Source of the DNA: Candidatus Hodarchaeota archaeon | Lineage (GTDB): Archaea > Asgardarchaeota > Lokiarchaeia > Sigyniarchaeales > SOKP01 | DNA length: 64,000 nt | Direction: 5' to 3' | Assembly (NCBI GenBank): GCA_048886685.1 | Contig: JBHLKM010000006.1 | Coordinates: 128,001 to 192,000 of the forward strand | In this document: positions 11,458 through 54,822 of the stretch, piece after piece | Layout: every line of letters begins with the position of its first letter | How positions within the stretch are numbered: the first letter of the stretch is position 1 | Made by a program: the position numbers and the translations under genes | Notes under the pieces: generated by a model | Database searches by the model: none | The model's input: only the letters and a program-made list of their open reading frames with translations | Told to the model about the DNA's origin: nothing

Positions 11458-12885
11458 TTATTCTATATATGTTGAAGCGATATTGTCCAACTGTTTCTGG
11501 AGGGACTCATCTATAGGTTTTACAGAAGACCTGTCAAGTAATTTAATGGCTTCCTCTTTTGCCCGTTTCCTTGCTGATTTAGATCCTTGTTCTCTCCATG
11601 AATCCCTTGTCATTCTGTCTATTATTGGGCTAGGAAGATATAATTCTTTTCTAAAATATTTTAAAGTAGATGGATGAGAAAGTAATTCTTCTTTATCCTT
11701 ATAATCCTGTAAAATTTCTGAGGCAAAAGGAGTTCCACGATCTTCAATTCCCTCAATCAGTCTTTTTACCATACCAATTATTTCATTATCGATAACAAGT
11801 TTTTCAATACTTTGGGTAGATTCAAAATCAAGCATTCCAGGCCCCGATATCATATTTATTCCCGCAAGACCCGCGAGTAAAGCACCCATTCCTGCTTCAA
11901 AACCTGCTTGGCTGTCTGGAACTTTAGAATCGCTCAAACTCATATAAGCATGTGTAGGTAATTTTAAGAATTTACCCATTTCAATATCTCCAAGATTAAT
12001 CATCATTGTTTCAATAGCACCCATTGGAGTAGTCCCATGTTTCATATCAAATACAGCAGGAGAGCCCCCCCAAATCAATGGAGCTCCTTGTTTTGCTAAT
12101 TGAACAATTACCACACCTGCAAGGCATTCAGCACAATGTTGAGTGATAGAACCAATTAGTGTAATTGGAGCACTCGCTCCTGCTAATGGCATTGACACAA
12201 ATTCAGAAGGTATCATGCTTTTTGCAGCATCAATCAGTGATTGTGTAGTTAGATCAGACCATTTTAATGGTGGACTGGGACACGCATCAAAAATAGCTAA
12301 TGGTTTTCGAGCTAAATCATCCTCTGAGTTTCTACATGCTAATAAGATCTCTCTCATAATAGAAAAACTTTCTTTTCTAAACGTCCCAGTCACTATAGGT
12401 TTATAACAATTAGATAATGCGAGATATAAACGATGCCAATCTTGAGCATCTTTCGGAACATCTTGATAGATCAATGCTGTACTTTGAGCTTCGATATATT
12501 TTAATTGTTCAACCACCTTAGAAAATTGAATAAAGTCTTTAGACTGCCCTGCTCTTATTTCTCCCGTATTTTCATCAAGTATAAAGATAGCGGCTGAACC
12601 AGGATCAAAATGGACCTGATCATCTTTTAGTGAAATATGCTCTTCTCCTTCTCTATCGAATAATGTAATTTGATGAGGAACTGAGTCTAAACATTTATCT
12701 ATCAAATCTGAGGGAATAAAATATCGTTCATCTTTATGATTTAAACCATGTTGGTTAAACATTTCGATTGATTGTTGATTTTCAATAAAAACTCCTTGAG
12801 TTTCTAAAATTGATTTAGCCTCCTCAAAAATTAATCTCTTATATTCATCATTTAATACACTAATTTTTGGTCTAATAATTGGCAT
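11458..12885 (-). CDS. MttB-superfamily (non-pyrrolysine) methylamine/quaternary amine:corrinoid methyltransferase
   Basis: SPPLKW, GASAPITLIGSITQHCAECLAG, DMKHG, SDSKVPDSQAGFE, GMLD, EKLVIDNE; no in-frame TAG. Confidence 0.88.
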   Translation of the reverse strand: MPIIRPKISVLNDEYKRLIFEEAKSILETQGVFIENQQSIEMFNQHGLNHKDERYFIPSDLIDKCLDSVPHQITLFDREGEEHISLKDDQVHFDPGSAAIFILDENTGEIRAGQSKDFIQFSKVVEQLKYIEAQSTALIYQDVPKDAQDWHRLYLALSNCYKPIVTGTFRKESFSIMREILLACRNSEDDLARKPLAIFDACPSPPLKWSDLTTQSLIDAAKSMIPSEFVSMPLAGASAPITLIGSITQHCAECLAGVVIVQLAKQGAPLIWGGSPAVFDMKHGTTPMGAIETMMINLGDIEMGKFLKLPTHAYMSLSDSKVPDSQAGFEAGMGALLAGLAGINMISGPGMLDFESTQSIEKLVIDNEIIGMVKRLIEGIEDRGTPFASEILQDYKDKEELLSHPSTLKYFRKELYLPSPIIDRMTRDSWREQGSKSARKRAKEEAIKLLDRSSVKPIDESLQKQLDNIASTYIE

Positions 12886-12909: not shown

Positions 12910-13788
12910 TTAAGTCAAATCAATTATTTTTCGGATTTCGCGAATAGTTTCTGGTGTTGTACCACAGCAACCACCAACTATTTTTACTCCTAAATTTATC
13001 ATTTCTTGAATATCTCGAACAAAATCTTTAATGGGTTGATCATAATATGTCTTAGTGCCTTCTATCCTTGGTTGTCCAGCATTAGGTTTTACGGAGATTG
13101 GCATATTAGTCATATCAACAGCTTGTTTAGCCAAATCAAGCATATCACCTGAACCAAGTGTACAATTTGTTCCAATCACATCTACCCTTTCGTTTTCTAG
13201 TGTATTTATGCATTTTTCTAAAGGGTCTCCCATGATTGTGAAGAATCCTCTCTTTGTTTTTTTATATGTTATTGAGGCAATAATAGGTTTATTTGAGATC
13301 TCTTTTACTGCTCGAATGGCGCTTAGCATTTCTTCTAAATCTGAAACGGTTTCAATATGAAATAAATCAACACCTTTTTCTAATAATTTTGTCTGAGTAG
13401 CAAAACTAGATTTCCAGTCTTCACTTGAGGCATTTCCTACTGGTGGACGAAATTTACCGGTAGGACCAATATCACCAACAATTAAACGTCCTGGAGGACA
13501 AGCTTTTTTAATGTTTTCTAACGCTTTCTCTATAATCTCATTGATTCTTTCTTCAAGGCCGTGCGTTCTTAAATTTAACGGGGTTGAGCCGAAAGTATTC
13601 GATTGACATATATCAGATCCTGCTTCATAATAAGATTTATGAATCTCTGTGACCATATCTGGTTTTTCTATATTTAATAAATCTGGAATCTTCCCTAGTT
13701 TCAACCCTTTTTGGATTAGCATTGAACCCATGGCTCCATCAAAAAGTATAATTTTTGAATCGTCCTCTAACCAATCGTTAAACAACAT
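12910..13788 (-). CDS. Homocysteine S-methyltransferase (stand-alone MetH Hcy-binding domain)
   Basis: FDGAMGSML, YYEAGSD, SNTFG, GTNC, KPNAGQP, and Zn-binding GGCCGTTP. Confidence 0.92.
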   Translation of the reverse strand: MLFNDWLEDDSKIILFDGAMGSMLIQKGLKLGKIPDLLNIEKPDMVTEIHKSYYEAGSDICQSNTFGSTPLNLRTHGLEERINEIIEKALENIKKACPPGRLIVGDIGPTGKFRPPVGNASSEDWKSSFATQTKLLEKGVDLFHIETVSDLEEMLSAIRAVKEISNKPIIASITYKKTKRGFFTIMGDPLEKCINTLENERVDVIGTNCTLGSGDMLDLAKQAVDMTNMPISVKPNAGQPRIEGTKTYYDQPIKDFVRDIQEMINLGVKIVGGCCGTTPETIREIRKIIDLT

Positions 13789-13817: not shown

Positions 13818-14465
13818 TTATTTATCTAGTAAAGATTTAACCAATTTTACAGCTTCTATCGCATTTTCTGCAAATCCATCTGCATTACATTCATTAACCC
13901 AGGAGCTTGTTACTGGAGCACCTCCTAATATAACCTTGAATTTATCAAGTAAATTTCGTTCTTTTAATAGTTCAATTATTTTTTTCTGACCAAACATGGT
14001 TGTTGTTAAAAGGGCAGAAACTCCAATGACATCTGCATCTTTTTCGATTGCGACATCGATAATTTTTTCAGCGGAAATATCTGTACCTAAATCAAAAACT
14101 GTAAATCCGTAAGCTCTTAACATTGTTCCGACGATAGTTTTTCCGATAGAATGAATATCTCCCTCTATTGTCGCAATTACAATCGTACCATGTGAAATTC
14201 CTTCTGTGCCTTTTTCTAAATGAGGAATAATTAAATCTAAACAATTTTGCATAATCTGTGCTCCTCTCATTAATTCAGGGAGGAAAAACTCACCTTCTTC
14301 CCATAATTCTCCAACCTTTCGAATGCCTGCTGCAAAACCTTTTTCAATAACATCCATTAAATTCATGTTATCCTCTATTGCCTTGTATGCTAATTCTACT
14401 GCTGTTTCTTCATCTAAATTAACAATAGAATCCACCATATCTTTAAAGATCTTTTCTTGAGACAA
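13818..14465 (-). CDS. Corrinoid (B12-binding) methyl-carrier protein, MtbC/MttC type
   Basis: Cap domain FFLPEL, GDIHSIGK (DxHxxG), SALLTTTM, GGAP. Confidence 0.93.
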   Translation of the reverse strand: MSQEKIFKDMVDSIVNLDEETAVELAYKAIEDNMNLMDVIEKGFAAGIRKVGELWEEGEFFLPELMRGAQIMQNCLDLIIPHLEKGTEGISHGTIVIATIEGDIHSIGKTIVGTMLRAYGFTVFDLGTDISAEKIIDVAIEKDADVIGVSALLTTTMFGQKKIIELLKERNLLDKFKVILGGAPVTSSWVNECNADGFAENAIEAVKLVKSLLDK

Positions 14466-16967: not shown

Positions 16968-17396
16968 CTACATAACATTCCCAATATTTCTAAAAATTAA
17001 ATAATTAGCCCCAATAATGGGACCTAAAATTAACAATGTTAATATAAATGAACGTGCTAATCCAGGTTTATGAATAATATTAATAATATTTAGAACTAAG
17101 AACACTGAAAAAACAACGGCTAATGCTATTAACCACTCTTCAGGTCCTCTATAATCACAAAAAGGTTGTCCTTTACATTCCGCAATAGCTAAAAACATAT
17201 CGAGAAGCATTGGACTACATACAAATAAGGTTACCCCATATTGAATAAGGTAACTACCAGCAACCCATTTAAAATTTGTTTTCGATTCAGCTTTAGTTAT
17301 AGCTAAACCAATCTTTAAAATTACAATACCAGCAAATATCATTACGCCAGCGATAATGAAGGGGTAGTACTTATCCATTTCTGTTTGAAAAAACAT
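16968..17396 (-). CDS. Hypothetical membrane protein (about 4 TM)
   Basis: Four hydrophobic segments; no recognised motif. Confidence 0.65.
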   Translation of the reverse strand: MFFQTEMDKYYPFIIAGVMIFAGIVILKIGLAITKAESKTNFKWVAGSYLIQYGVTLFVCSPMLLDMFLAIAECKGQPFCDYRGPEEWLIALAVVFSVFLVLNIINIIHKPGLARSFILTLLILGPIIGANYLIFRNIGNVM

Positions 17397-17599
17397 AAAT
17401 ATCGATTATTAAACAAATATAATTTTAGATTTTAACAATTAAATTTATTTTTAAAATGATTTTTAACTCATTATATTATAAAAGATATAAAAAACATTTT
17501 TGATTTAAATTTATTTAATTAAAATAGAATATTTACATTTTCAATAAAAATCTATGTTATAGTGGAGGCAATTATAAAAATAGAAAGGTATGTTATGCA

Positions 17600-19582
17600 A
17601 TGGTAGATACAAAAAGCGATACTATTCAAAAAGACGATGATATTCCAAGAATTGCCATTTTCATTTGCCAATGAGGTTTGAATATTGCAGAAATAATCGA
17701 CACAAAAAAATTAGGAGAATTCTCAAAAACTCTTCCAAATGTAGTGGAGGCTATAGACTATATAAGTTTGTGAACTGAACCTGGAGCTGAGTTTATAAAG
17801 GAAAAAATGATTGAAACCAATGCCAATAGACTAGTTGTAGGATCCTGTACTCCAAAAACTCACGAGCCTGTCTTTAAAAGTGTATTAGAATCAATGAACA
17901 TAGACCCGTCTTATTTAGAATTTGCTAATATACGTGAACATTCTAGCTTCGTTCACAGAAAAGACAAAGTAGGTGCCCAGAAAGTTGCTGAAGACGCTAT
18001 TCGATCTGCTGTCGCTAGAGCTGCTGTCTTAGAGAAAATCTTAATAAAAGAAGTGGATATAACAAGAAAAGCTCTTATAATTGGGGGAGGTGTTGCGGGA
18101 TTATCTGCGGGTATCGATTTGGCTGAAGAAGGTTTCGAAATCTATTTAGTAGAGAAAAAGCCTACAATAGGAGGAAAAATGGCAAAATTGGATAGAACTT
18201 TTCCAACAGATGATTGTAGTATATGAATATTAGGACCTGTTATGCTTCAAGGTGCAAGGACTCCTGGATTGAATCTTTATACATATAGTGAAGTAGAGGA
18301 TGTACAAGGATTTGTCGGGAATTTTACTGTAAAAATTCGTAAGAGAGCAAGATATGTAAATAAAGACTGTAATGGATGCGGAGCATGTTGGGAGGTTTGT
18401 CCTGCTTATGGTTACAATGAATTTAATGAAGGATTAGATTCAAGGAAGGCTATATATTCGGCATTTGCTCAAGCAGTCCCTTCATTAGCTCAAATTGATA
18501 TGGATAGATGTATTAAATGTGAACTCTGTAAGGCTGCTTGTGAAGTAGATGCGATTGATTTTGACCAAGAAGATGAAATAGTAGAATTACAAGTAGGTTC
18601 AATTATTGTAGCTACGGGATGGGACGAATTTGAACCTCCAACGGGATATTTAGGATATAACCAATATCCTAATGTAATTACCCAATTAAAACTTGAAAGA
18701 ATCCTCGCCCCAAATGGTCCTACTCTTGGACACCTTGTTCGTCCTTCAGATGGGAAAGTGCCAAAAAAAATTCTATTTATACAGTGTGTAGGTTCGAGAG
18801 ATTTAAACATGAACACTTATTGTAGCTCAGGAGTATGCTGTATGATCTCAATTAAAAACAGCAAGTTAATTAAACAACATTCACCTGATGCCGACATTAC
18901 GGTTGCTTATATGGATATGAGAGCAGCAGGGAAAGACTATGAAGAATACTTCACACTTTCACGAAAAGAGGGTATAAAATACATTAGAACGAATGTCAGT
19001 AGAATAAAAGAAGACCCAGAGACACATAATTTAAAAATTATTATGCAAAATACATTAGGATCTAGCGGATTAAAAGAGCTTGAATATGATATGGTTGTAC
19101 TCTCTGCTTCAATGGTACCCGCTAAAGGCGTAGAAAGCATTCAGAAACTCTTAAAACTTGAGATGAGTCAAGATGGATTCTTTAAAGAATTCCATGCTAG
19201 GTTGAATCCAATTGATACAAAAATTCCAGGGATTGTTTTAGCTGGGGTTAGCCAAGGTCCAAAATCGATTGTAGAATCAATTGCTCAGGGACGAGCTGCA
19301 GCATCTTCTTTAGCTAGACTTATGGGTAAAGACAAATACCGTATACTTCTAATTAGAGCAGCCGTCGAAGATAAAGAAAAATGTGCAAAATGTGGATTAT
19401 GTGAATTAAATTGTCCATACAATGCAATAACTCTTATGGATGATGGTGCTGAAGTGAATGAGATTCTTTGTAGAGGATGTGGTACTTGCTTAGCTAATTG
19501 CCCTTCAGAAGCAATTACATTACGCTACTATAGAGAACCTCAGTATGAGAAACAAATAGACGCAATCTTGGAAGAGATATAG
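17600..19582 (+). CDS. hdrA: Heterodisulfide reductase subunit A-like flavoprotein, selenoprotein with three in-frame UGA (about 660 aa)
   Basis: One frame from ATG 17600 to TAG 19582 joins the two tracked ORFs. TGA at 17672 (FICQ-U-GLNIA), 17771 (ISL-U-TEPG) and 18224 (FPTDDCSI-U-ILGP), each at a conserved HdrA Cys. Also GGGVAG FAD motif, ferredoxin motifs, QCVGSRD, CSSGVCC. Confidence 0.92.
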
Positions 19583-19596
19583 AGAGGTGTGAAAAA

Positions 19597-20058
19597 ATGG
19601 TAAGTGAATCGAATAATGATATAAAAATTCTAGCTTTTCTTTGCTGGAAATGAGGTTATGGTGCTGGAGACATGGCTGGAACGATCCGGGCTCAGTATCC
19701 TGCTACACTCAGACCAGTTCGAATAAATTGTACAGGAAGAGTTACTCCTTCTCTTCTGATGAGAGCGATTGGAAAGGGTGCTGATGGTGTAGTCGTAGGC
19801 GCCTGATACCATGGAGAATGTGATTATGAAACAGGTAATTTAGTAGCTGAGAGAAATGTTCAATATGTGAAAGAAATCTTAAAAGCGACAGGTATCTCTC
19901 CAGAAAGAGTACAAATGTTTCATTGCAGTGCTGCTGAAGGACAGAAATTTCAAGATGAAGCGACAAGGATTTCAGAATTGATAAAAAATTTAGGTAATAA
20001 TCCTATTAAAGATTCAATAAAATCTAATGAACCAAAAATCAAGAAAAAGAATAATTAA
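19597..20058 (+). CDS. mvhD: MvhD/VhuD [2Fe-2S] subunit, selenoprotein with two in-frame UGA (153 aa)
   Basis: ATG 19597 after GAGGTG. FLCWK-U-GYGAGD (TGA 19651), RINCTGRV, GADGVVVGA-U-YHGECDYETGN (TGA 19804), CSAAEG; in frame with tracked ORF 19867-20058. Confidence 0.92.
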
Positions 20059-20063
20059 ACCGA

Positions 20064-20105
20064 TTGAATGAATCTTATGAAAAAATTTTAGTCATAAGAC
20101 GACAG
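20064..20105 (+). promoter_or_regulatory. Putative eukaryote-like SECIS element in the 3' UTR of hdrA-mvhD
   Basis: ATGAA (20068-72), TCTTATGA, loop AAAAATTTTAG, TCATAAGA, CGAC (20100-03): a perfect 8-bp stem on a UGAN/NGAN core with unpaired As at the loop start, about 10 nt after the mvhD stop. Confidence 0.8.
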
Positions 20106-20151
20106 ACCACAGTGTAATGGTTTCGGGATTTATATATATTTGAATAAAGTA

Positions 20152-20160
20152 TTTTTTTTT
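20152..20160 (+). terminator. Oligo-T archaeal terminator candidate downstream of the SECIS
   Basis: T9 run after the operon and hairpin. Confidence 0.4.
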
Positions 20161-20251
20161 AAATTTCAGCCAATTTATACTTAATTTTTTCTAACAAAAT
20201 AAAAATAAAAAAAAAGGGAAGTCATTAAGTTTTAATAATTTATTTTATACT

Positions 20252-20713
20252 TTATGCTCCGCCGCGAAATATTTTATCTCCAAATTTCTCGAATATAAAT
20301 GCTATAATACATATAATTCCTGCTATTAAGACTCCAATTGGCGCAAAACCTACTGTTAAACCCTCTGCATCATAGACCAGCATTAAAATTGGGAAAATAA
20401 TCAAGGCAATCCCCACTAATACATAGACTAACCAATCCCATTTAAATTCCATTCCTCTCCAACTGTGAAGCCCATAAAACAATAATAACGCCGTAGAAAA
20501 TGCAGTTATCCCAAAAGTCCACAAGGTGGCAGTACCACCCCCCATCCAATCATCAAATCCGCCACCACTGACATATGAAATTATTCCACTCCACCAATTC
20601 TGGGTAGTAATACCCGCTACCTCATCACTGCTTACAGGAGTGAAGAGTGCAATAATAGCTAAGATTGCAGCAATTAAAATATAAATCCAGGTATCCTTTT
20701 TAAAATCTACCAA
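20252..20713 (-). CDS. Hypothetical four-TM membrane protein
   Basis: Four hydrophobic helices, with a Gly/Trp-rich loop after TM1. Confidence 0.7.
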   Translation of the reverse strand: MVDFKKDTWIYILIAAILAIIALFTPVSSDEVAGITTQNWWSGIISYVSGGGFDDWMGGGTATLWTFGITAFSTALLLFYGLHSWRGMEFKWDWLVYVLVGIALIIFPILMLVYDAEGLTVGFAPIGVLIAGIICIIAFIFEKFGDKIFRGGA

Positions 20714-27197: not shown

Positions 27198-29101
27198 AAT
27201 GGAATGGATACACTGGGAATATTTTACATGTGAATTTACGTGAGAAAAAGACTAAAATTACAAATCAAAATATTGATGACATCAAAAAGTTCATAGGTGG
27301 GTTTGGAGTAAATGTTAAACTCGCAGCGGAATTAATTAAACCTAATATCTCTCCATTTAGTTCTAAAAATTATATCATAATAGGAGCAGGACCATTAGTT
27401 GGTACAATTACCCCGGGTTCCTCTCGAACTGTAGGAGTAAGTAAATTTCCAGCCAGTGGAGCAATTGGTTATTCATGTGGGAGTATGAGCTTTGGATCCC
27501 AGTTGAAAAATGCCGGATTTGATCATATTATTATCTCAAGCAAAGCAGAAAAGCCATCTTATTTATTGATTCAAAATAATCACGTTGAACTCAAAAATGG
27601 GTATAAAATTTGGGGAACAGATATTGTAGATTCCACAAACTTTTTGCAAAAAAAGTACAAAGATTGTAGCGTAATTGCAATAGGACAAGCTGGGGAAAAC
27701 CTTGTATATAATTCTTTAGCACTTATTGATAAAACTTCAACATTTGGACGTGGAGGACTAGGAGCAGTTATGGGATCTAAAAACCTTAAAGCAATTGTAG
27801 TACAAGGAACACAAGATATTTCAATTGCATATCCTAATGAATTCAATAATTTATATTTTAAACTATTTGAAAGGATTCGAACCTATCCCCTGAGAGAATC
27901 TTGGATTGATTTTGGAATGCTAAGAAGTTTACCCGTTGGGGCGCTTTTAAAAGTTAAAGGTCAAAAAGAAAAAGCTCACCAATGTAGTGAATCAGAATAT
28001 TTAAAAAAGTTGAAAAAACGTCGAATAGCTTGCCCCTCTTGCCCTATGGCGGATAAAGATATTCTTGAGCTTAAAGATGGATGTTATTCCGGATTAATAA
28101 ATTATACTTCTTCAGTAATAAATCCTTTCCTCATCTTTACACTTGAAGGGTTAAACAATGTTAATGAAAATATAAAATTTTTTGACCTTATTAATCGGTA
28201 TGGACTGGATGCATTAAATATTAAAGGTCTATTTGAATTTTTAGATAGAATGTATAAAATAAAGATTTTATCAGAACAAAATACTGGGTTAGATTGGAAA
28301 AATGAAATTAATAGTATGATTAGGCTAATTGAAATGATTGTTTTTCGGAAGGGATTTGGTAATATTCTGGCAGATGGCTGGGAAAAATTGGGTGAAAGCT
28401 ATGAAAATCTTATAGATAGAATGACTATAGTAAAAGGGTTAGATATAGTATTTGAACCTCGACTATTAAGGTTAGGAACGATGGAATTTGAACAAGTTGT
28501 TAACCCTAAAGGGGCACACGTTGCTTCTGGAGGGTCGCCTACATATGTAGGTGTTGGAACATCTACTGAAAAATTTAAAAACCACTTTGATCGAATGGGA
28601 ATTCCTAAAGAAGCGATTAAAAGAATATTTTCACCCTCAAAAAAAGAAATGATAATAAATATTGGTAGAATAACAAAATATTCAGAGGACTGGTATGCCC
28701 TATTGAGTTCTTTAGGTTTATGTGCAAGGGCTCAAATGAATCGTTTTTGGAGTCTCGAATCTGCTACCAATTTTTATAATGTAATAACAGGAATAAACCT
28801 GAAATCTGAAGAAATAAGGAAAGCTGCTGAACGTTCATGGAATTTACTTAAAATTTTAAACACTAGAGAAGGTTTCTCTCGAAATGATGATAAATTTCCT
28901 GAAGAATGGTTTAAACCTTTAAAATATGGAAAAAACTATTTCCCATTCAAGGATTTCTTTGGAGAAATAACAATTACCCAAGAAATTGCTAACCAATTGC
29001 TCGATGATTATTATGAAGAGCGGGGTTGGAATATATTTGACGGAAATCTAACTGAAGAAAAGATAAAAGAACTAGATTTAGAAGTCTATATAAATAATTG
29101 A
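27194..29101 (+). CDS. Aldehyde:ferredoxin oxidoreductase family (tungsten) protein
   Basis: GYTGNILHVNL, AIGQAGEN, GRGGLGAVMGSKNLKAI, YGLDA, SLGLC, YYEERGW. Confidence 0.9.
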   Translation: MKWNGYTGNILHVNLREKKTKITNQNIDDIKKFIGGFGVNVKLAAELIKPNISPFSSKNYIIIGAGPLVGTITPGSSRTVGVSKFPASGAIGYSCGSMSFGSQLKNAGFDHIIISSKAEKPSYLLIQNNHVELKNGYKIWGTDIVDSTNFLQKKYKDCSVIAIGQAGENLVYNSLALIDKTSTFGRGGLGAVMGSKNLKAIVVQGTQDISIAYPNEFNNLYFKLFERIRTYPLRESWIDFGMLRSLPVGALLKVKGQKEKAHQCSESEYLKKLKKRRIACPSCPMADKDILELKDGCYSGLINYTSSVINPFLIFTLEGLNNVNENIKFFDLINRYGLDALNIKGLFEFLDRMYKIKILSEQNTGLDWKNEINSMIRLIEMIVFRKGFGNILADGWEKLGESYENLIDRMTIVKGLDIVFEPRLLRLGTMEFEQVVNPKGAHVASGGSPTYVGVGTSTEKFKNHFDRMGIPKEAIKRIFSPSKKEMIINIGRITKYSEDWYALLSSLGLCARAQMNRFWSLESATNFYNVITGINLKSEEIRKAAERSWNLLKILNTREGFSRNDDKFPEEWFKPLKYGKNYFPFKDFFGEITITQEIANQLLDDYYEERGWNIFDGNLTEEKIKELDLEVYINN

Positions 29102-41870: not shown

Positions 41871-44800
41871 TTATTCTACACCTCCTTTAAGATTTTTAAA
41901 TTCTCCCGTCGTTTCGGGTAATATTTTCTTTTTCTTCCTTTCAGTGCCTAATATATTTTCTAGCGATAATCCAAGCATGTCCCATCTATCTCCTAGCCGC
42001 TTTACTAAATATTCTTCCTTTGAAGGATACAGAAGTGAATCTGAGATAGCCTTTTTGCCTTTAATGTCTTTCTTCATTTTTTTTGTTTTCTTAACAAATG
42101 TGGGAATTCTAGCTTGTTGAACTACTCGATAAATAGCCAAACTACCAACAACAGCTATTGTTGCGCCAACAATCATTAAGAAATAAAATGCAGGAAAGCC
42201 AGAAATTGGCCATTCAACCATTTTAACTTCAACAACAAATGTTTTTGTTTTTGTAGAGTAATTAGTTTTTTGAACTGTAATCATTGCTGTATATGTTTGT
42301 GGAGCAAAAAATGCATCTGGTGTTTTAGGAATAGTTACTGTATACGATCCATCACCATTATCTATAATATCACCTTGACTAATAGTATAATTATTACTTC
42401 GAAATGTTACCGTGACTTCTGTTCCATTTACTAGATTATCATTGAGAAGATCTTTAATTTCAATGTCAAAAACTAAAGGTTTACCTGAAATTACTTTAAT
42501 TATATCAGATGAGTCAACTGAAAATTCTCTGGGTATAACTTTTAAAATAATAATGGCAATCCTTAGAGCGTAATTTGATTTCCCTATGGATATTGATAAC
42601 GTGTAAGTTGCAATTTCTTTTATATGAGTATCGAAGTCTAATTCATAAATTCCATCATAGAGGTTAGTTAAGAATAATATACCACTATCTACCACATTTC
42701 CATTACTATCTTCTTTTTCCCATTCACAATGAGCAATTTCACAATTAGATAGCCCTAAACCAGTATCTGCTTCGGTGTAGTTAAAGTAAAATATCTTTTC
42801 TTCCCCAAATGGCAATTCAACGGCATCTAATATTCCAGTACTATCGTTTATTCTTGTATTAATCGCATTAATTTTCACAGGAAGAATTATTTGTTTCGTT
42901 TCGTAATTTTGTTTATCTGCAATTATTTGTATAAAGTAATCACCATAACCTGGAAAATCTCCTGTATCTAAAACAAGTCTATATCTACCTCCAGAACCTA
43001 ATGGATCAAGGAGACCACTAACCCCAATAACTCCAATACCTAAATATTGAACGATAGCGTCCTCTATATCCAAATCAGGATCTGCATAAATATCTTGATA
43101 ATGAACTTCCAAGTTAATAACATCATTCCAATATGCTGTTCCAATACTCACATTAGCAGTTAAACTAGCAGTTTTATCTGCAAGTACAAATGTTATTGCA
43201 GTTGTTTTTGATATAAAACCGGGTTTTGATGCAAAGATCTCCATAGTGTATGTTATACTAGACTCCCATAATTCACCTCCAACATCTATAGGATTAGAAG
43301 TGTCAATGGTTAAGTTGTAAAGTCCTCCTCCAATGTCATTGAACTCTAATGTCTGTATATTTAATATTTGAGTCCCAATCTTTATATTGTAATTCACATC
43401 AGCATCAATTATCCCTGTTGGGTTAGTTTCATTTACTGTAAATGTATAATTAACTTGAAAGGATATCAATTCACCTAAAATTGTACCTTCTTCATAAACT
43501 TCGGGTAAAGCTATTGCGGTATCAAAAGAAGGTGCGAATGTAACATTAACAATTTTTGAGTCGGCTTGATAAAAGGGAAGTGTTATATTTTTCAAATTAG
43601 AAGGATCTAAATCACCAAGGGCACTGATATCTCTTGGTTCAGTATCAAACCAGGTAAGTGTGAAAGTAACATTACCATCAGGACTACTAGTGAAATTTTG
43701 CCAACGAAAAATTACATTCCCATTTTCATCTGAGTTTTCCGAACCAATGAAATCTGGTCCAGTTCCATTATCAATCCAAAAATCGACTTTTGCTCCTTCT
43801 AAAAATCCCTTAAAAGCTGCCGTTTCATTATATCGGTGTAGTGTTAAATTCAGAGTAGTAAGCTCTACATTTGTAAATTCTGTTAAATTAACGCCAAAAG
43901 TATCAACAGTATTATCATTGATGTCAATTGTTTTAGGGGTAGTTATAGTTAAAGGTTCTTTACCATATTTTTCATATGATACATTTACTACATATGAACC
44001 ATTATTCAGTCGATTAAAAATAGCTATTCCAGAATCATCCGTATATTGAACCCAATTTTCATTATAATTTGAAGCATTCCATAAAGTAACAGTCGCATCG
44101 GGAACAAGATTGTTGTCTATATCTGTAACATTCACTTTTAAATTGTAAAACAGACTGTCCTGTTCATAAATGTAAAAATTGATAGGATTTCTTAGAGTCT
44201 TAAAGGTATTATCGAATAATTCGATCAGTTCAGTCGTATTTAAAGGAGTAGAGACACCTATATTATCAATATATTCCCAGAAATCAATAATTAACTTATA
44301 ATCGCTTCCCCCAATATTATTTTGGAAATCATTTAGAGAACCGGGTGTATATCTAACGATATCATTTATTGCATCGTAAAAAACAGTTCCATTTAAATAG
44401 GTAATGGTTGCAAGAATATCGGAAGTTGAATATCCAGCAACAAAAACTCCAAGTGTGTCTTTTGTAGCAACATGTATTGGATCATGAATTATTGTATAAT
44501 TTTCTGATATAAACTGATCATTATTTAAACCATCTACAAAATTTCCATCATAATAGAAATGAAAGTTTTCATTCTGGCTCAAACCAGATAGATCATAATA
44601 TGTATTCATTGGAATCATTGACGCAATTGTCGAATTATATACATTATCAAAATAAATTTCTCTATTGATGTTCCATAGATTATAATCATAGTAAAAAGTA
44701 CAATAATCTATAGTGGACATATCAAATGCTTTATTCCATTCTATACGATAACGCGAAAATACTTGTCCATTTTCGATTTCAGTTATTGATTGAATTGTAG

Positions 44801-46259
44801 ATGGAATTGATGCATATTTATAATCCTCGATCATTTGATCTGAAAGAGCACTATTATAAATTGCAACCTCATCAATATCACCATTAAAATAGGTATCAAT
44901 ATGATCTGTGGATCCAATTGTAAATGGACTTCCCTCAGCTTGATCTAAATCAGTAGCACCACTCCATGCAGTAGAAGTATACCAGGCATCGTTTATCTTT
45001 ACATCAACATCACCAGAATCATATCGAAGAGCAATAAAATTCCATTCACCAACACTAACATCTCCGGAGTTACCAAAATTAGCATAAGTATCTCTTGTTT
45101 CAGTATCGATATATACATGGATTGTTCCTGGACTTGTTCCTCCAATTGATCCAGAATTTATTCCTATTTCAAAATTATCGTTATATGGATCGCTTGCTTT
45201 AGCCATAAAACAATTCTGTGTATAATGATTACTTTGCAGATCTGTTAAAGCTGCTGGTTTAATCCAGAGAGTGATGGTAAATTCTGTGCTATAATCATTG
45301 AAAGGATCCCCAGATCCTTCCAGAGCAGCTCCAAAACTCAAATCATCATTTCCATCAAATGATAAACCATATTTTACAACACCAGAGGTCCAAGTAGGAT
45401 CACCTCTATAGAACGAGCCATCCACCCCATAGCCACTAGTGTCCAAAACAGTTGTTCCTTGATTCTCATCCATATGAGTTAATAGTCTTAGATCTGGATG
45501 AGATAATTGTTTTTCAGGAACTAAAGATTTGTCTGTATGAAAATTATATGTGTCTTTATTTAATTCCGATACAGCCAAACCTTGCTGTAACACAGCTTCA
45601 TATAAAGATCCTGATTCTCCTACTGTAACAGTAAGTTTTCCCCCAACTAGAACACTAGTAAAGTCAGTATTATAATCTGGAATCTCAATACTATCCATAT
45701 TCTCATTATAGTAAAGGAAAAATGTTTGGTTAGATAATGCAGAAATACTAGCAATAAATGTTATAGTACAAGATTGGATATAATTTGGATTAGGATAATA
45801 GGTGATATTCCAAAGTTGAATAGGAATTGGATTACTCCATTCATTAATCCCTGTCGCATTATAACTTACTAATCTTGTACTCCCTTCATAATGTTCATTT
45901 TCCTGGAAATTAAAAAATATATCAACAGGTTGATACTTATCAAAATCATCAAGATTTTCTATTTTAAATCCAATTCTAAACCGATAAGTCTTATTCCACC
46001 ACTCTGATAAATCATACTTAAAAGCTGGATAGAATATATCGGAAGATTTTAGTGAATTGAAGTTATTATTAAAACTATCTTCATTGAAAATTTCCTTCTC
46101 TGCGGGTAAATTTGAAACATCACTGGAATTAGTAGAATTTAAAGGCAATACAGTTATAATAGAGCTTACAATAAAAATCAACAACAAACTGGCTGTTATC
46201 CTCTGTTTAAATTTCTTTTTTGCCTTAATCATTTTTTTTCTCAAATTTTTTTTAAACAA
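41871..46259 (-). CDS. Large single-pass cell-surface protein: signal/anchor, DUF2341-like, LamG/concanavalin-like, Ig-like repeats, C-terminal TM, cytoplasmic tail
   Basis: WWNKTYRFR; LamG pattern HMDENQGTTVLDTSG...LSFDG...FTITLWIK...FNGDIDEVAIYNSALS; many NxS/T sequons; TM FYFLMIVGATIAVVGSLAIY followed by a basic tail. Confidence 0.85.
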   Translation of the reverse strand: MFKKNLRKKMIKAKKKFKQRITASLLLIFIVSSIITVLPLNSTNSSDVSNLPAEKEIFNEDSFNNNFNSLKSSDIFYPAFKYDLSEWWNKTYRFRIGFKIENLDDFDKYQPVDIFFNFQENEHYEGSTRLVSYNATGINEWSNPIPIQLWNITYYPNPNYIQSCTITFIASISALSNQTFFLYYNENMDSIEIPDYNTDFTSVLVGGKLTVTVGESGSLYEAVLQQGLAVSELNKDTYNFHTDKSLVPEKQLSHPDLRLLTHMDENQGTTVLDTSGYGVDGSFYRGDPTWTSGVVKYGLSFDGNDDLSFGAALEGSGDPFNDYSTEFTITLWIKPAALTDLQSNHYTQNCFMAKASDPYNDNFEIGINSGSIGGTSPGTIHVYIDTETRDTYANFGNSGDVSVGEWNFIALRYDSGDVDVKINDAWYTSTAWSGATDLDQAEGSPFTIGSTDHIDTYFNGDIDEVAIYNSALSDQMIEDYKYASIPSTIQSITEIENGQVFSRYRIEWNKAFDMSTIDYCTFYYDYNLWNINREIYFDNVYNSTIASMIPMNTYYDLSGLSQNENFHFYYDGNFVDGLNNDQFISENYTIIHDPIHVATKDTLGVFVAGYSTSDILATITYLNGTVFYDAINDIVRYTPGSLNDFQNNIGGSDYKLIIDFWEYIDNIGVSTPLNTTELIELFDNTFKTLRNPINFYIYEQDSLFYNLKVNVTDIDNNLVPDATVTLWNASNYNENWVQYTDDSGIAIFNRLNNGSYVVNVSYEKYGKEPLTITTPKTIDINDNTVDTFGVNLTEFTNVELTTLNLTLHRYNETAAFKGFLEGAKVDFWIDNGTGPDFIGSENSDENGNVIFRWQNFTSSPDGNVTFTLTWFDTEPRDISALGDLDPSNLKNITLPFYQADSKIVNVTFAPSFDTAIALPEVYEEGTILGELISFQVNYTFTVNETNPTGIIDADVNYNIKIGTQILNIQTLEFNDIGGGLYNLTIDTSNPIDVGGELWESSITYTMEIFASKPGFISKTTAITFVLADKTASLTANVSIGTAYWNDVINLEVHYQDIYADPDLDIEDAIVQYLGIGVIGVSGLLDPLGSGGRYRLVLDTGDFPGYGDYFIQIIADKQNYETKQIILPVKINAINTRINDSTGILDAVELPFGEEKIFYFNYTEADTGLGLSNCEIAHCEWEKEDSNGNVVDSGILFLTNLYDGIYELDFDTHIKEIATYTLSISIGKSNYALRIAIIILKVIPREFSVDSSDIIKVISGKPLVFDIEIKDLLNDNLVNGTEVTVTFRSNNYTISQGDIIDNGDGSYTVTIPKTPDAFFAPQTYTAMITVQKTNYSTKTKTFVVEVKMVEWPISGFPAFYFLMIVGATIAVVGSLAIYRVVQQARIPTFVKKTKKMKKDIKGKKAISDSLLYPSKEEYLVKRLGDRWDMLGLSLENILGTERKKKKILPETTGEFKNLKGGVE

Positions 46260-47847: not shown

Positions 47848-48960
47848 TTAGTCTTCTTCTTTTTCTTCTACTTTAACCTTAATCGGTCGATAGTTATCAT
47901 CAAGAACATTAAGATATTCAATCAGAACCCCAGTTGATTTTGATTTTACTTCATATTGGTGAATTATTGTTCTTAACATGTATTTAGGGTATATCAAAGA
48001 GTTATAAAAATCTGTAAGTAAAGCATAATATTCGTTTCCTTTAGTATCTTGAAAAACATGAATCATCTGATTATTCCATAACTTCTTTAATCCACTATCG
48101 ATGTCATCAACTCCTTTTTTTCGGAGTTTCTCCAGGACATTTTTTGTAACGATTGAAATTCTAAGTAATTTTAAAATTTCATATACTTGAGGATCTGCGA
48201 TAACTTCATCTAGTATTTTAAGATTGTCCTCATCTGATGGACGATATTTTTGGAAGAATTTCCTAACAGCTATATTATATTCATCCGTAAATTTGTCAGG
48301 AAGTCCTCGCTCAGTAGGATTTTTAAGTAAAATAATTGGTGGTCTTCGAATCATGAACAAATCATTTATAAGAAAAATTAATTCTGAAGGCATACCTTTA
48401 ACTGATGCTTCTTTTATTATCTCCTTTTTGATTAATTCCATAAGAATCGCATCCACATCGAAAAATCCTTCCCTATATCGGTCCTTTAACCATATTTTCA
48501 ATTCTGATTTGCTTATCACGCCTTCTTCTCTTAACCTATTTATAATTAATCTGTTTACACCGTCAAGATATGTGATAGCTAGACTTTGCTCTTCATTTAA
48601 ATGAGGATATGTTGATAATCTTTGGAATAAGAACGGGATCATTTCTAAATATGCATTATCTTCATAGTTTTGAAAAATCACGCGTGAAATATCAGATAAT
48701 CCACCCTCATATGTATCAGCATCTTCATCTAAATTCAAGAGTAGGATGATATAAAGAGGTTTTTCTCTCCCAGTATAATATGAAGCAATGTTTAATGGAC
48801 CTACAAGTAAACTAATCATTCCTGGTTCTCCTGTATATTCATGAGCAGCATATATTTGCATTAATGTTTCCTCGGTTATAACGAGTTCATCTGGATATTT
48901 CGCAAGAATCTCTGTACTTACTTTAATATCCCATCTCATTATTACTAATCCAATTGGCAT
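47848..48960 (-). CDS. Longin/uDENN-like plus predicted winged-helix protein (paralogue 2)
   Basis: 43 of the first 60 residues identical to 40755-41870; TAATG stop/start overlap with the upstream gene, GGAGGTG upstream. Confidence 0.65.
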   Translation of the reverse strand: MPIGLVIMRWDIKVSTEILAKYPDELVITEETLMQIYAAHEYTGEPGMISLLVGPLNIASYYTGREKPLYIILLLNLDEDADTYEGGLSDISRVIFQNYEDNAYLEMIPFLFQRLSTYPHLNEEQSLAITYLDGVNRLIINRLREEGVISKSELKIWLKDRYREGFFDVDAILMELIKKEIIKEASVKGMPSELIFLINDLFMIRRPPIILLKNPTERGLPDKFTDEYNIAVRKFFQKYRPSDEDNLKILDEVIADPQVYEILKLLRISIVTKNVLEKLRKKGVDDIDSGLKKLWNNQMIHVFQDTKGNEYYALLTDFYNSLIYPKYMLRTIIHQYEVKSKSTGVLIEYLNVLDDNYRPIKVKVEEKEED

Positions 48961-51900
48961 TAGTTATTTTCACCTCCTTCTTTGGTGATCCTGTCTTTTA
49001 TTGATGATTTCTTGGTTTTTAAATCTTGTATTCCTAATGTTTCATCTATTGAAAGACCAAGTTCCTTCCAATCATCCCCAAATAGTTTTGCTGTCATTTC
49101 TTCTTTTGTTGGAATTGAAATCTCTGAAACTTTTTTCTTTGATTTGATGTAGCCCTTGATTTTCCTTATCTTTTTAACATGTTTGGGAATTCTTGCTCGT
49201 TGGATGACTCTATATGCTACAATACTTCCTACTACTCCAACTACTGACGCAGTAATCAAAATGAAGTAAAATGTTGGCATTCCTGGAAATATTTCTTCCA
49301 TTAAAACCTCTATTGTTATAGGAATCTCTCTAGTAGTAAAATTAATCATTTCAATAGTAATTTTGGCAGTCAATGTTTTTGAAGAGATGAATGTGTCAAT
49401 GCCACTTGTGCTGTAATTTAAAGTATAAATCCCTGGTATAGAAATAAAAGGAATAAAATCAATATCAACACCTCTAATGTTCAATGAAACTTGAGCATCT
49501 ATTAAACTAATATTATTCCTAGAAAGATCAACTAAATTGATAACAAAGTTAATAATATCTCCTTGATCTACTTTAATCTGATCATTCGCTTCTTTAGATT
49601 TTTTATTTGCTTCTAAAACATAATCGAACTCTCTTAATTTAATTTCTAGATTTATAAAAGCAAACCTAGCTTCGAAACTTATTTTTTGCATAGTAATAAA
49701 TAATGAATATTCACCAACTTCTCTTAATTCTGTATTAAAGTCAACATAATATGTTCTGTTAGGATTTTGTATCAACGTTCCTGTGCCCTCATATCCTGGT
49801 CCAGTAAGAGGATTTCCATTTTCATCTAATTCATGCCAACTATAGCTTGCTGTTGTTAAATCTCCAATTACCTCAAGGCTATTTGCATCTATATATGCAA
49901 ATGTGAAGTATCGAGTATCTTCAACCCAAACCTCTGGAGTTAGATAAACTAACTCTGTCAGGTCATTAAGAAGAGTTTTTCTTTCGAGAATATTAAGGTA
50001 GACTGGGAATGAAAGCCTAGTATAATTTTCAAGTGAGGCAGAAATGCTTATAACTTTTATACCTGTACTTTGCGCATCAGAACTATTAAGAGTAAATGTA
50101 TAGTATTGACTATTTAAAGGATCAGAATAGAAAGTAATAGGATCAAGTCCAATCCAACTATATGTTAACAATGCGTTTTCTAAATGAAATCCTGATTCTG
50201 CAATTGAATATTTAACTGTAATGTTTATAAGTTCGTTAAAATTTGTTGTATATGTCTGATCTAATATCAATATACGTGTATCATAATCATGTGCAGTGAT
50301 TATCGTTGGTAGTGCCTTTATTTTAACTAAATATACTATAGAAGTTGGATTGTCATATGTCGGGTGATAGCCACTTATTGCGACATCATAGTATTCTTTA
50401 TCAGTTCCGGCAGATAGAAGTCCTGAATTAACAGTTATTGTAAAATTACCATTCCCTACATAGGTCATTTTCTCTGAAATCAATATTTCTTCTGAACCGG
50501 CCACTTTTATTGTCAAATAACAGTTTCCTGGGGGTTCTGAAACGTAATCCCACGTTTGCCAGTTATCAGAAGTGGATATAAATTCTGCCCAGAAACTTAT
50601 ATCATCTTCCCAGAACGCTTCACTTGTTCCCCCTGTTGTATTAAAGGCTGTATCATAATTAGTTACATTTACTCCTGTTCCTTCTAATCTCAGGTTAAAT
50701 GTAATTGAGGAATCTCCGTGTAAAGTATAATTATATTCATTTATTTTCGCAAGTCCTGGGATCCACTGTGGAGGATCAACATACGTTATATTAAAAGGAG
50801 CATCAGTTATGTTTGCAATGTCTAAAGAGAAATTATACTTTCTCCCTATCAAGAACCAAAATGGTGTTTCATAACCATTTTTAGGACTAAATGCATATCC
50901 ATCTCTGTCGCTAAATGAGGACAAATTGACTAATGGTTGTCCGGTTAAATCATCGACTACTTTAATTGTTGCACTCCTAGGATCTCCCTCTGGGGATTCT
51001 ACACTTCCGTAATTTTCTATTACTCTAAGGTTTAACCTTGCTAAGGCTGTTCTATTATAGATATTACACGATTCTATTAAATCCAATTTAATCATACCGT
51101 TGCTAATTGTACTATTGAATCCATTGACTTCAACTAATAGACCATAAACTTCAAAATTATCACTTCTTAAATTATCATTATCAATATGTGTGATATCAAG
51201 CTCTATAAAATCATCTGTTATATTGGTGGCACTATAGACTTTATTATAAATAAGGTTTCCTACAGTTGAATCGTCCTTATCTATATAATAGATAGAAACA
51301 TCTTCAAGATAATTCTGCATATCTGTTAGAGTAATATTGGCTTTAAGGATTTTTATATTACTTAATTCAGTTTTAGAACCATTAGTATAAATTCGTTCAG
51401 AAACAGAAAAACTACCTACACTTGATTCATTTAAATTTATTGTATGATCCCTAAATTTTGCATTATCCTGAATATATTGACTTCTATAGATATAACTCTC
51501 ATTTAGCGCCAAAGGAATAAAATCACCATAATCCTCGTTATCATAAAAAACTTTATAATAATAACTCGATTTATTTAGCCACCGAAATGTTGCCCTACCA
51601 TTATTATCAAGTGTCACGCTATCTAAGAATGCGCCGCCTTTACTTTCATTAATTTCAATGTATCCATATTTTAATGGGATCCCATCCCAATCGACAACTT
51701 CAAAATCAATAGTCCATAAATCTAATTGAATATCGGTTGTATAATCTATTCCATTAAAATAGTATGGACCTATACCGGATTTACTACTATTGAAAACTTC
51801 AACTTCCTGAGAACATAAAGTATAATTCGCAGTAATATTATATCTACCACGGGGTAAGTCAGTAAACGTTATCTTACCATCAGTAGCAACTTTAGAATCA

Positions 51901-53345
51901 ACAATAAATCCACCTGTTCCCTTAGCACTATTATTTACAATGAAGATTTCTGTGTTGGGTACTATTCTTCCATCAACGTCTTTAGCTATAACAGTAACAT
52001 CAGATTTACGAGCCTGTAACTCTTCTATTGAAGTAGTAAGTGTATAATTGAATCCCACATAATCTACTTGAAAAAATCCTGATCTAAGGTATTTAGCATC
52101 TCCATTTTCAAAACCCCAAGATCCAAGCTCTAAAAATATTTCTTCACCCATATAATCTGATATATCAAAAATTATATTTCCTGTTAAATCGTTATATGAT
52201 ATGCTAGTGTCCACTACAGGACCCTTAAAATGTTCCCATAAATTAGGCTGATTATTATAAACTTGACCTGTTTTTTGTGCATACCCTCCATATGCTTCAA
52301 TATAATTATTATAACCTGTTCCGATATTCTCATGTAAATCAACATCACTAGTATACTTTGAAGCCGTACCATTGCAAAGCCTGATGAAATAACCATCATT
52401 ATCTATAGTAGCACCACCTGCTTTATTTCTCTCAAAAATAAAAGTTCTTACATTACGCCACATATTTAAACTAATTTTACCTGTACCATCATTTATTACA
52501 GGAACTTTAAAAGGATAAGAATATAATGTCCCAACATAATCAAATGAACTTGCAGAAGTACCCACAGTAGCTGTTTTAGTTCCCCATTTGTATGCATAAT
52601 CACCATGCCCAACTCCCTCGAGATCGGTTGGATCGTTGATTACACTATACATAAAATTATCATAACTAGTTTCTGAGTTATTATATGATTCTAGATTAGA
52701 AACTATTAAATCATCAGTAACATAGTCAGTAGGATCATCTATAAAATTCCATCCATAAGGTATAAATTTAATACTTGTATCAGTATCAAATTCGAAATCA
52801 CCATTCTTGATCCAACCAAAACTATCTGTAACACCACTAGCTTCAGCATTTCCAGCCAAACTATTTCCAAAATATAAATATGTGTCACTTTCAGTTGCAT
52901 ATTGTAATATATCAGTATCAAACCATACAGTAGCTAAATCTGTAGATGGATAGTCTTTAACAACATAATATTTCAGTAAATTACCATTCTCTACGATTCT
53001 TATATCGTCTAAATCTGATTGAATTAGACTTCCTAATTCGGCATAATTAAATGTTAAACTAACTCCAAAATTAGTAAAATTCGCATTATAAGGGTTTGTT
53101 ATAGTAATTAATCGGCGATAGGCAAAATCAGTATCCCACCATGGATCATCTCCTAATAAACTTGACTTAAGCCCTGTTGGAGTGGAAAAATCATTAAAAT
53201 CATTATTTTCTTCATAAATATTCTCTGAATTGGTCGCAGAATTAAATAAATTTGTTAGATATGCTGGAAAAAGCATTATCACTAATGTTATTGAGAGTAA
53301 CAATACAATTTTTAATCGAATTTTATGTTTATTAAATGTTTTCAT
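48960..53345 (-). CDS. Large single-pass cell-surface protein: signal/anchor, DUF2341-like, CBM-like, Ig-like repeats, C-terminal TM, cytoplasmic tail
   Basis: WWDTDFAYRRLITI...DLDDIRIV...YLYFGN (DUF2341-like); IKNGDFE...GW; TM FYFILITASVVGVVGSIVAY and a tail homologous to that of 41871-46259. Confidence 0.85.
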   Translation of the reverse strand: MKTFNKHKIRLKIVLLLSITLVIMLFPAYLTNLFNSATNSENIYEENNDFNDFSTPTGLKSSLLGDDPWWDTDFAYRRLITITNPYNANFTNFGVSLTFNYAELGSLIQSDLDDIRIVENGNLLKYYVVKDYPSTDLATVWFDTDILQYATESDTYLYFGNSLAGNAEASGVTDSFGWIKNGDFEFDTDTSIKFIPYGWNFIDDPTDYVTDDLIVSNLESYNNSETSYDNFMYSVINDPTDLEGVGHGDYAYKWGTKTATVGTSASSFDYVGTLYSYPFKVPVINDGTGKISLNMWRNVRTFIFERNKAGGATIDNDGYFIRLCNGTASKYTSDVDLHENIGTGYNNYIEAYGGYAQKTGQVYNNQPNLWEHFKGPVVDTSISYNDLTGNIIFDISDYMGEEIFLELGSWGFENGDAKYLRSGFFQVDYVGFNYTLTTSIEELQARKSDVTVIAKDVDGRIVPNTEIFIVNNSAKGTGGFIVDSKVATDGKITFTDLPRGRYNITANYTLCSQEVEVFNSSKSGIGPYYFNGIDYTTDIQLDLWTIDFEVVDWDGIPLKYGYIEINESKGGAFLDSVTLDNNGRATFRWLNKSSYYYKVFYDNEDYGDFIPLALNESYIYRSQYIQDNAKFRDHTINLNESSVGSFSVSERIYTNGSKTELSNIKILKANITLTDMQNYLEDVSIYYIDKDDSTVGNLIYNKVYSATNITDDFIELDITHIDNDNLRSDNFEVYGLLVEVNGFNSTISNGMIKLDLIESCNIYNRTALARLNLRVIENYGSVESPEGDPRSATIKVVDDLTGQPLVNLSSFSDRDGYAFSPKNGYETPFWFLIGRKYNFSLDIANITDAPFNITYVDPPQWIPGLAKINEYNYTLHGDSSITFNLRLEGTGVNVTNYDTAFNTTGGTSEAFWEDDISFWAEFISTSDNWQTWDYVSEPPGNCYLTIKVAGSEEILISEKMTYVGNGNFTITVNSGLLSAGTDKEYYDVAISGYHPTYDNPTSIVYLVKIKALPTIITAHDYDTRILILDQTYTTNFNELINITVKYSIAESGFHLENALLTYSWIGLDPITFYSDPLNSQYYTFTLNSSDAQSTGIKVISISASLENYTRLSFPVYLNILERKTLLNDLTELVYLTPEVWVEDTRYFTFAYIDANSLEVIGDLTTASYSWHELDENGNPLTGPGYEGTGTLIQNPNRTYYVDFNTELREVGEYSLFITMQKISFEARFAFINLEIKLREFDYVLEANKKSKEANDQIKVDQGDIINFVINLVDLSRNNISLIDAQVSLNIRGVDIDFIPFISIPGIYTLNYSTSGIDTFISSKTLTAKITIEMINFTTREIPITIEVLMEEIFPGMPTFYFILITASVVGVVGSIVAYRVIQRARIPKHVKKIRKIKGYIKSKKKVSEISIPTKEEMTAKLFGDDWKELGLSIDETLGIQDLKTKKSSIKDRITKEGGENN

Positions 53346-54717: not shown

Positions 54718-54822
54718 GCAGATGTAGCCTAGCTGGTAAGACGCTGGCCTCGAGAGCATTTTTCGATAACCTAGAGAGCCAGTGCGCGTAAGCGCTCGGG
54801 GGTTCGATTCCCTCCATCTGCG
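54718..54822 (+). tRNA. tRNA-Ser(CGA) with a 22-nt intron at 37/38 (54755-54776)
   Basis: Acceptor GCAGATG/CATCTGC plus discriminator G, anticodon stem CTGGC/GCCAG, anticodon CGA at 54751-53, long variable arm GCGC-GTAA-GCGC, T arm GGGGG TTCGATT CCCTC; CCA not encoded. Confidence 0.9.

Follow-up and report, generated by a model that had tools for sequence, protein, structure and literature searches.

A single lokiSECIS downstream of vhuD as the probable recoding signal for five in-frame UGA codons of an archaeal hdrA-vhuD gene pair

Pairs of hdrA and vhuD genes in Loki archaea have been described as sharing a single selenocysteine insertion sequence (SECIS), the lokiSECIS, which lies downstream of vhuD and serves up to six UGA codons over ~2 kb (Mariotti et al. 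2016; PMC4989117). The same arrangement was later restated across 227 Asgard genomes that use selenocysteine (Sec) (Huang et al. 2024; PMC11227280), so that a shared SECIS for hdrA-vhuD is already known, having been published in 2016 and extended in 2024. Here we describe an hdrA-vhuD pair with five in-frame UGA codons and one lokiSECIS in a 64,000-nucleotide (nt) stretch of a Loki-type (Promethearchaeota) genome, that of a Candidatus Hodarchaeota archaeon (assembly GCA_048886685.1, contig JBHLKM010000006.1, positions 128,001 to 192,000 of the forward strand), referred to below as the window, whose first letter is position 1. A first-pass annotation, in which the second gene is called mvhD, had proposed from the sequence that one element recodes five UGAs across two cistrons; our analysis supports that proposal, which is not new in kind (PMC4989117), and none of the outcomes that the annotation had named as refuting was observed.

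The locus shares its layout with the published Loki tandems (PMC4989117, PMC11227280). In both, hdrA precedes vhuD on one strand and the spacer between them is very short, HdrA contains several Sec residues, among them the canonical one near residue 200, VhuD contains two Sec residues ~50 codons apart, hdrA stops at UAA or UAG, and one element is found just past vhuD. The two differ only in degree, with five UGAs and 2.4 kb here and up to six UGAs and ~2 kb in the papers. A lower helix and an inserted second hairpin, both seen here, are absent from the main texts of both papers.

Two more distant systems are also relevant. Eukaryotic type I SECIS elements likewise have an AUGA...GA core at the upper helix's base and unpaired A residues in the apical loop, and they too occupy the 3′ untranslated region (UTR) and act at a distance on several UGAs. 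In contrast with them, the hdrA-vhuD element has a shorter upper stem and an extra hairpin on the 3′ side of the internal loop, and it serves two cistrons. Methanococcales share the protein families, the Sec positions (HdrA 197 and two in VhuD), the hdrA-vhuD synteny and the placement of the signal in the 3′ UTR, whereas their HdrA contains one Sec with its own SECIS, of the euryarchaeal (GAA_A) type, and a Loki SECIS is inactive in Methanococcus maripaludis (PMC11881835).

In-frame UGA codons of hdrA and vhuD

When TGA is translated as Sec (U), each gene forms one continuous frame, of 660 residues for hdrA and 153 for vhuD; the two share a strand, and vhuD directly follows hdrA. The features of the pair are as follows.

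17600–19582, plus strand: hdrA, 660 codons, ending in TAG (frame with TGA = U; alignment to 5odc_A; Pfam)
17672–17674, plus strand: UGA codon 25 (Sec, U25), within the Fe-S domain at the N-terminus (opposite Cys13 of 5odc_A)
17771–17773, plus strand: UGA codon 58 (Sec, U58), a Sec/Cys-variable site (aligns with Cys46 of 5odc_A)
18224–18226, plus strand: UGA codon 209 (Sec, U209), the canonical Sec site of HdrA (opposite Cys197 of 5odc_A)
19583–19596, plus strand: spacer of 14 nt with a Shine-Dalgarno-like GAGGTG before vhuD (read from the sequence)
19597–20058, plus strand: vhuD/mvhD, 153 codons, ending in TAA (frame with TGA = U; PF02662; solved VhuD/MvhD chains)
19651–19653, plus strand: UGA codon 19 (Sec, U19) of VhuD (aligns with an X residue of 9sfi_K; Cys in other MvhD chains)
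19804–19806, plus strand: UGA codon 70 (Sec, U70) of VhuD (aligns with the second X residue of 9sfi_K)
20060–20126, plus strand: lokiSECIS within a predicted three-way junction (covariance-model match, minimum-energy fold, covariation)

Translation confirmed the coordinates that the first-pass annotation had assigned to all five TGAs, and its 14-nt spacer and TAG and TAA stops were likewise borne out. The two TGAs of vhuD are 51 codons apart. Under genetic code table 11 the locus splits into open reading frames (ORFs) of 139, 446, 44 and 63 aa; gene callers will therefore break it up, as had been predicted. Pfam searches assigned the HdrA protein an FAD/Rossmann domain and several 4Fe-4S ferredoxin (Fer4) domains, and the VhuD protein an FlpD/MvhD domain (PF02662, 5.8e-42).

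The full-length HdrA frame could be aligned from one end to the other with HdrA of Methanothermococcus thermolithotrophicus, a solved structure (5odc_A; E 1.6e-204). This alignment places U25, U58 and U209 over Cys13, Cys46 and Cys197. The last of these positions, 197, is Sec in the HdrA of M. maripaludis (PMC13518236). The VhuD frame aligned with solved VhuD/MvhD chains (E 4e-34), and its U19 and U70 coincide exactly with two X residues of 9sfi_K, an F420-non-reducing hydrogenase delta subunit, in columns that hold Cys in other MvhD chains. Each X denotes a non-standard residue at a known Sec site. Three of the five TGAs thus coincide with known methanococcal Sec sites, and all five fall in conserved Cys/Sec columns. 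The first-pass annotation had gone further and described all five as Fe-S ligand positions. The conserved columns stand, and the ligand role is only presumptive: for Sec197 of M. maripaludis HdrA, a 2026 cryo-electron microscopy paper proposes a Cys-Sec selenenylsulfide relay and not a plain cluster ligand (PMC13518236), and no ligand assignments for HdrA Cys13, HdrA Cys46 or the MvhD cysteines were found in the literature searched. HdrA codons 25 and 58 both lie within the MvhD-like N-terminal Fe-S domain.

The in-frame TGAs are retained in relatives or replaced solely by Cys codons, the outcome of a comparison with Cys homologues that the first-pass annotation had suggested. In 20 species of the same genus whose hdrA orthologues were compared, TGA stands at codons 25 and 209 in 20/20; codon 58 is TGA in 12/20 and TGT or TGC in the other 8/20. 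Within the same genome, four Sec-type hdrA paralogues retain Sec at both 25 and 209 and have further Sec residues at 83, 267 or 304, and two Cys-type paralogues carry Cys in every Sec column (25, 58, 83, 209, 267 and 304). For vhuD, each of the 29 orthologues that match best in congeneric genomes has two TGAs, as does each member of the paralogous vhuD set, and two TGAs are likewise found in vhuD of three complete genomes of the same order (G043, G049 and G054). Sec classically shows itself by such an exchange, in which TGA at fixed columns gives way to Cys codons only. Judged from these sequence comparisons, all five in-frame UGAs of hdrA-vhuD very probably encode Sec.

The Sec-decoding set of tRNA-Sec, PSTK, SepSecS, EFSec and SelD, which had also been proposed as a check, is represented in the genome (4.4 Mb in 47 contigs). 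The tRNA-Sec (63 bits; anticodon TCA according to ARAGORN) adjoins the SepSecS gene (388 bits), and a gene for an EFSec/SelB-like GTPase (237 bits; G000:C1:225153-226340) lies 4 kb beyond the two. A PSTK-like gene (136 bits) matches across its full length. Against foreign models, the candidates for PSTK and EFSec stay below the curated cut-offs, yet they are the clear best matches, over the full length and the N-terminal part, respectively. There are two tandem selD genes with one in-frame TGA each. As a point of genome organization, SepSecS, tRNA-Sec and the EFSec-like GTPase are clustered within 7 kb (G000:C1:219573-226340).

One lokiSECIS behind two cistrons

The published lokiSECIS consists of an AUGA, a 9-bp stem, an 11-nt loop that opens with A residues and closes with an ultraconserved final G after A, and a GA (PMC4989117). 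All of these features, along with a position near the 3′ end of the coding sequence, are found behind vhuD. The AUGA (20068–20071) starts 10 nt past the vhuD TAA and 2396 nt past the first UGA, in agreement with the first-pass annotation, which had seen its only SECIS-like hairpin after mvhD at about 2.4 kb from that codon. The upper stem pairs 20072–20080 with 20092–20100 over nine positions (eight Watson-Crick pairs and a basal A.C), the apical loop AAAAAUUUUAG spans 11 nt at 20081–20091 with mostly A among its first five bases and G as its last base, and the GA follows immediately 3′ of the stem at 20101–20102.

Comparison of related elements supports this structure. Eight or nine of the nine upper-stem pairs covary. 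Of 79 aligned orthologous elements, 78 have AUGA and one has GUGA, and the stem is followed by GAC in 79/79 orthologous elements and by AAC in two paralogues. The stem pair beside the AUGA/GA core (20072/20100) is non-standard in 17/31 aligned elements and is A.C in this window. A non-standard pair next to a G.A/A.G core would fit the non-canonical stem of a kink-turn (K-turn), as expected.

A covariance model built from 28 related elements was run over the whole window, on both strands and with filters off. It returned a sole significant match at 20056–20133 (75.9 bits, E 1e-17), the next-best score being 12.9 bits (E about 1), so that this filter-free scan of the window detected no second SECIS inside or upstream of hdrA. 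In 79/80 public vhuD orthologue loci the model found exactly one element, immediately 3′ of vhuD. The 70 nt past each UGA fold no better than shuffled sequences (z −1.4 to +0.7); the absence of excess folding argues that hdrA-vhuD has no bacterial-type local element. Two further weak hairpins within hdrA, at 17754–17802 and 18114–18156, came from a loose descriptor patterned on that of Huang et al.; neither has an AUGA, and the descriptor gave no conserved candidate in or upstream of the gene. The 13-bp hairpin at 17754–17802, which encloses U58, was considered as a local signal and rejected: it is not conserved in the 20 orthologues, whose folds differ and whose energies equal those of shuffles.

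Covariance models were used for these searches in place of a pairing-aware SECIS script, which was noisy in this AT-rich genome (111 matches). The model R1 missed diverged paralogues under default filters, and a second model, R2, recovered most of them. In the R2-based alignment A4, a few rows are truncated or shifted by one. The MAFFT alignment A1, in which C11-type paralogues were misaligned by 12 columns, was left unused.

The same genome provides an internal control in the form of a paralogous hdrA (G000:C2:318059-320002, minus strand) that has four UGAs, two of them at positions 267 and 304, and is not followed by vhuD. This gene has its own lokiSECIS directly at the stop codon, with an AUGA that appears to overlap the stop (G000:C2:317884-320002). 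Since an hdrA that lacks vhuD carries its own 3′ lokiSECIS, the UGAs of HdrA do rely on such a 3′ element. The lokiSECIS sits behind the last Sec-containing cistron.

The genes on either side of the pair, a divergent one upstream (16968–17396) and a convergent one downstream (20252–20713), are both on the opposite strand; hdrA and vhuD therefore form an isolated two-gene unit. Because the upstream gene is on the opposite strand, transcription of hdrA must begin within 17397–17599, an AT-rich leader of 203 nt that presumably comprises the promoter and 5′ UTR of the bicistron. On the 3′ side, a run of nine T residues lies 26 nt downstream of the three-way junction.

17397–17599, plus strand: AT-rich 5′ intergenic region (upstream gene on the opposite strand; putative promoter)
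20152–20160, plus strand: nine-T run, a candidate archaeal terminator (read from the sequence; next gene convergent; putative function)

Given the 14-nt spacer, the opposite-strand neighbours and the T run after the element, a single bicistronic mRNA would be the simplest reading for hdrA and vhuD.

We consider it very probable that hdrA-vhuD is an isolated unit whose five UGAs are read as Sec by the organism's own machinery, with one 3′ lokiSECIS as the sole signal. The UGAs would be decoded by the tRNA-Sec, PSTK, SepSecS, EFSec-type factor and Sec-containing SelD of the genome, and the one lokiSECIS on the bicistronic mRNA would bring Sec-tRNA to the ribosomes at UGAs located 264 to 2396 nt upstream. 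It would also serve ribosomes on the upstream cistron, acting across the hdrA stop. Both genes end in non-UGA stops, and termination is therefore not recoded. The core of the element, a putative kink-turn, would recruit the Sec elongation factor; no archaeal SBP2 is known. Our data show the five codons with their conservation, the Sec machinery, an element that is both unique and conserved, and the arrangement of the genes; the single transcript, the long-range action across the hdrA stop and the manner of factor recruitment are the parts of this scheme that we infer.

Several observations weigh against this account. The literature searched contains no transcript, proteomic or reporter support for a shared hdrA-vhuD SECIS, and the only bench test of a Loki element that we found was negative: the Loki vhuU SECIS gave 21 mU/mg in an M. 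maripaludis reporter, compared with 22 without a SECIS (PMC11881835). That test was made in a heterologous host, apparently with the minimal hairpin (PMC11881835). The Rfam library reported no SECIS family at gathering scores across the window, and over 17000–20600 it reported no SECIS at E up to 10, with one chance snoRNA match only; standard SECIS tools are reported to fail on Loki elements (PMC4989117). Finally, our search models were built on the known kind of SECIS, and a recoding signal of another kind in hdrA lies outside their reach.

This last point bears on the principal alternative, namely that hdrA has its own unrecognized recoding signal, in another fold or in the context of the UGAs, and that the 3′ lokiSECIS serves vhuD only. 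A reach of 2.4 kb plus a cistron boundary is unprecedented for one SECIS, models derived from known lokiSECIS elements are blind to other types, and the loose descriptor did return two weak hairpins within hdrA. Neither hairpin has an AUGA, however, the one around U58 is not conserved in the 20 orthologues, and no excess structure follows any UGA. The vhuD-less hdrA paralogue, moreover, has a lokiSECIS immediately 3′ of its stop, and hdrA never has UGA as its stop, which is what recoding of all upstream UGAs by a distal element would lead one to expect (PMC4989117). We regard a separate hdrA signal as improbable.

Two further alternatives deny that the UGAs are Sec codons at all. If the TGAs were true stops, the locus would be a decaying or fragmented gene pair, in line with the four fragments called under table 11. 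The same TGA columns recur across dozens of genomes, with Cys codons as the sole alternative, both full-length frames can be aligned with solved HdrA and MvhD, and Sec machinery and a conserved SECIS are present, by which this explanation is effectively refuted. Reassignment of TGA throughout the genome, for example to Trp or Gly, would account for the open frames and for nothing more. Five other long ORFs in the window end in TGA, and the first-pass annotation had likewise regarded TGA as an ordinary stop elsewhere. Two of the positions that it cited, 3044 and 29101, are each the final base of a TGA stop of a long ORF; no stop lies at the third, 27197, since 27194 starts the ORF that ends at 29101. 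In-frame TGAs are also confined to Cys/Sec columns, and a tRNA-Sec with anticodon TCA is present. Reassignment is likewise effectively refuted, and we give it even less credence than the reading of the TGAs as stops.

Three-armed context of the lokiSECIS

The minimum-energy fold of the 3′ element is a three-way junction. A lower helix (helix I) pairs CCGA at 20060–20063 with UCGG at 20123–20126 and closes a junction of the K-turn hairpin and a second hairpin (20105–20122), whose loop contains GUAA. The same three-armed fold, with unrelated lower helices, is found in paralogues (AUGUGUU/AACACAU, ACCCCU/AGGGGU, UUCCGAA/UUCGGAA and UCUGAAA/UUUCAGA), in further families that belong to the class (UCGAUGG/CCAUCGA, CUGCC/GGCAG and GUUGGU/ACCAAC) and also in SECIS elements of other genes of the same genome.

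In a model-fitted alignment of 32 elements, all five pairs of the lower helix show double changes, and lower-helix cells pair in 92% of cases, compared with 35–50% when the partner is slid, a comparison biased toward the model structure by the way the alignment was made. An alignment-free test folded 13/14 representatives into the junction. Unconstrained energies of 5′/3′ flank duplexes were too noisy for helix I and were replaced by constrained folds of chimeras and by pair counts; in the constrained folds, 10/148 chimeras with a foreign 5′ flank reached the cognate energy. Against these results, helix I in this window is only 4 bp long, the weakest of the family, and on its own it is not above chance (43/200 shuffles). 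Across 77 distinct orthologous elements the CCGA/UCGG helix is near-invariant. In 49/70 distinct sequences the second hairpin has a GNRA-like tetranucleotide (GCAA, GUGA, GCGA or GUAA) in its loop, compared with ~15% in controls, the sequences being related and not independent. This hairpin may be an arm for tertiary contact or protein binding.

We tentatively suggest that the functional lokiSECIS is a three-way junction resembling a "k-junction", and not the published minimal hairpin, its architecture being conserved from the genus to other families of the class and in the SECIS elements of other selenoprotein genes; we hold this reading possible but would not yet favor it. No three-way junction was found in the main texts of PMC4989117 and PMC11227280, nor by a full-text search for "SECIS" with "three-way junction".

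Other features of the window and significance

Elsewhere in the window, Rfam reported a PYLIS_3 match at 11838–11937 on the minus strand (44.6 bits). This was considered as a pyrrolysine signal and rejected: the MttB-family ORF in which it lies (11458–12885, 475 codons) is uninterrupted, and there is therefore no TAG there. The match is probably coding-sequence homology. The neighbours of this ORF are genes for a corrinoid protein (13818–14465) and a homocysteine S-methyltransferase-family protein (12910–13788). Rfam also reported a tRNA of 105 nt at 54718–54822 on the plus strand, presumably intron-containing and absent from the ARAGORN output. Two ORFs of near-equal length, 1462 and 1461 aa, lie a few kb apart on the same strand (41871–46259 and 48960–53345, both minus).

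The hdrA-vhuD locus adds one well-conserved example to the known tandems and confirms that automated annotation breaks such genes. With one 3′ signal for five stop codons in two cistrons, the proposed span of 2.4 kb exceeds the reach suggested for any other SECIS. The shared lokiSECIS has a bearing on the origin of the eukaryotic Sec system from an Asgard one, a point already made in 2016. The three-armed context of the lokiSECIS is a modest refinement beyond the published model. If it is correct, the junction may be required for factor recruitment or for long-range action, and it might explain the inactivity of the minimal Loki hairpin in the methanogen reporter.

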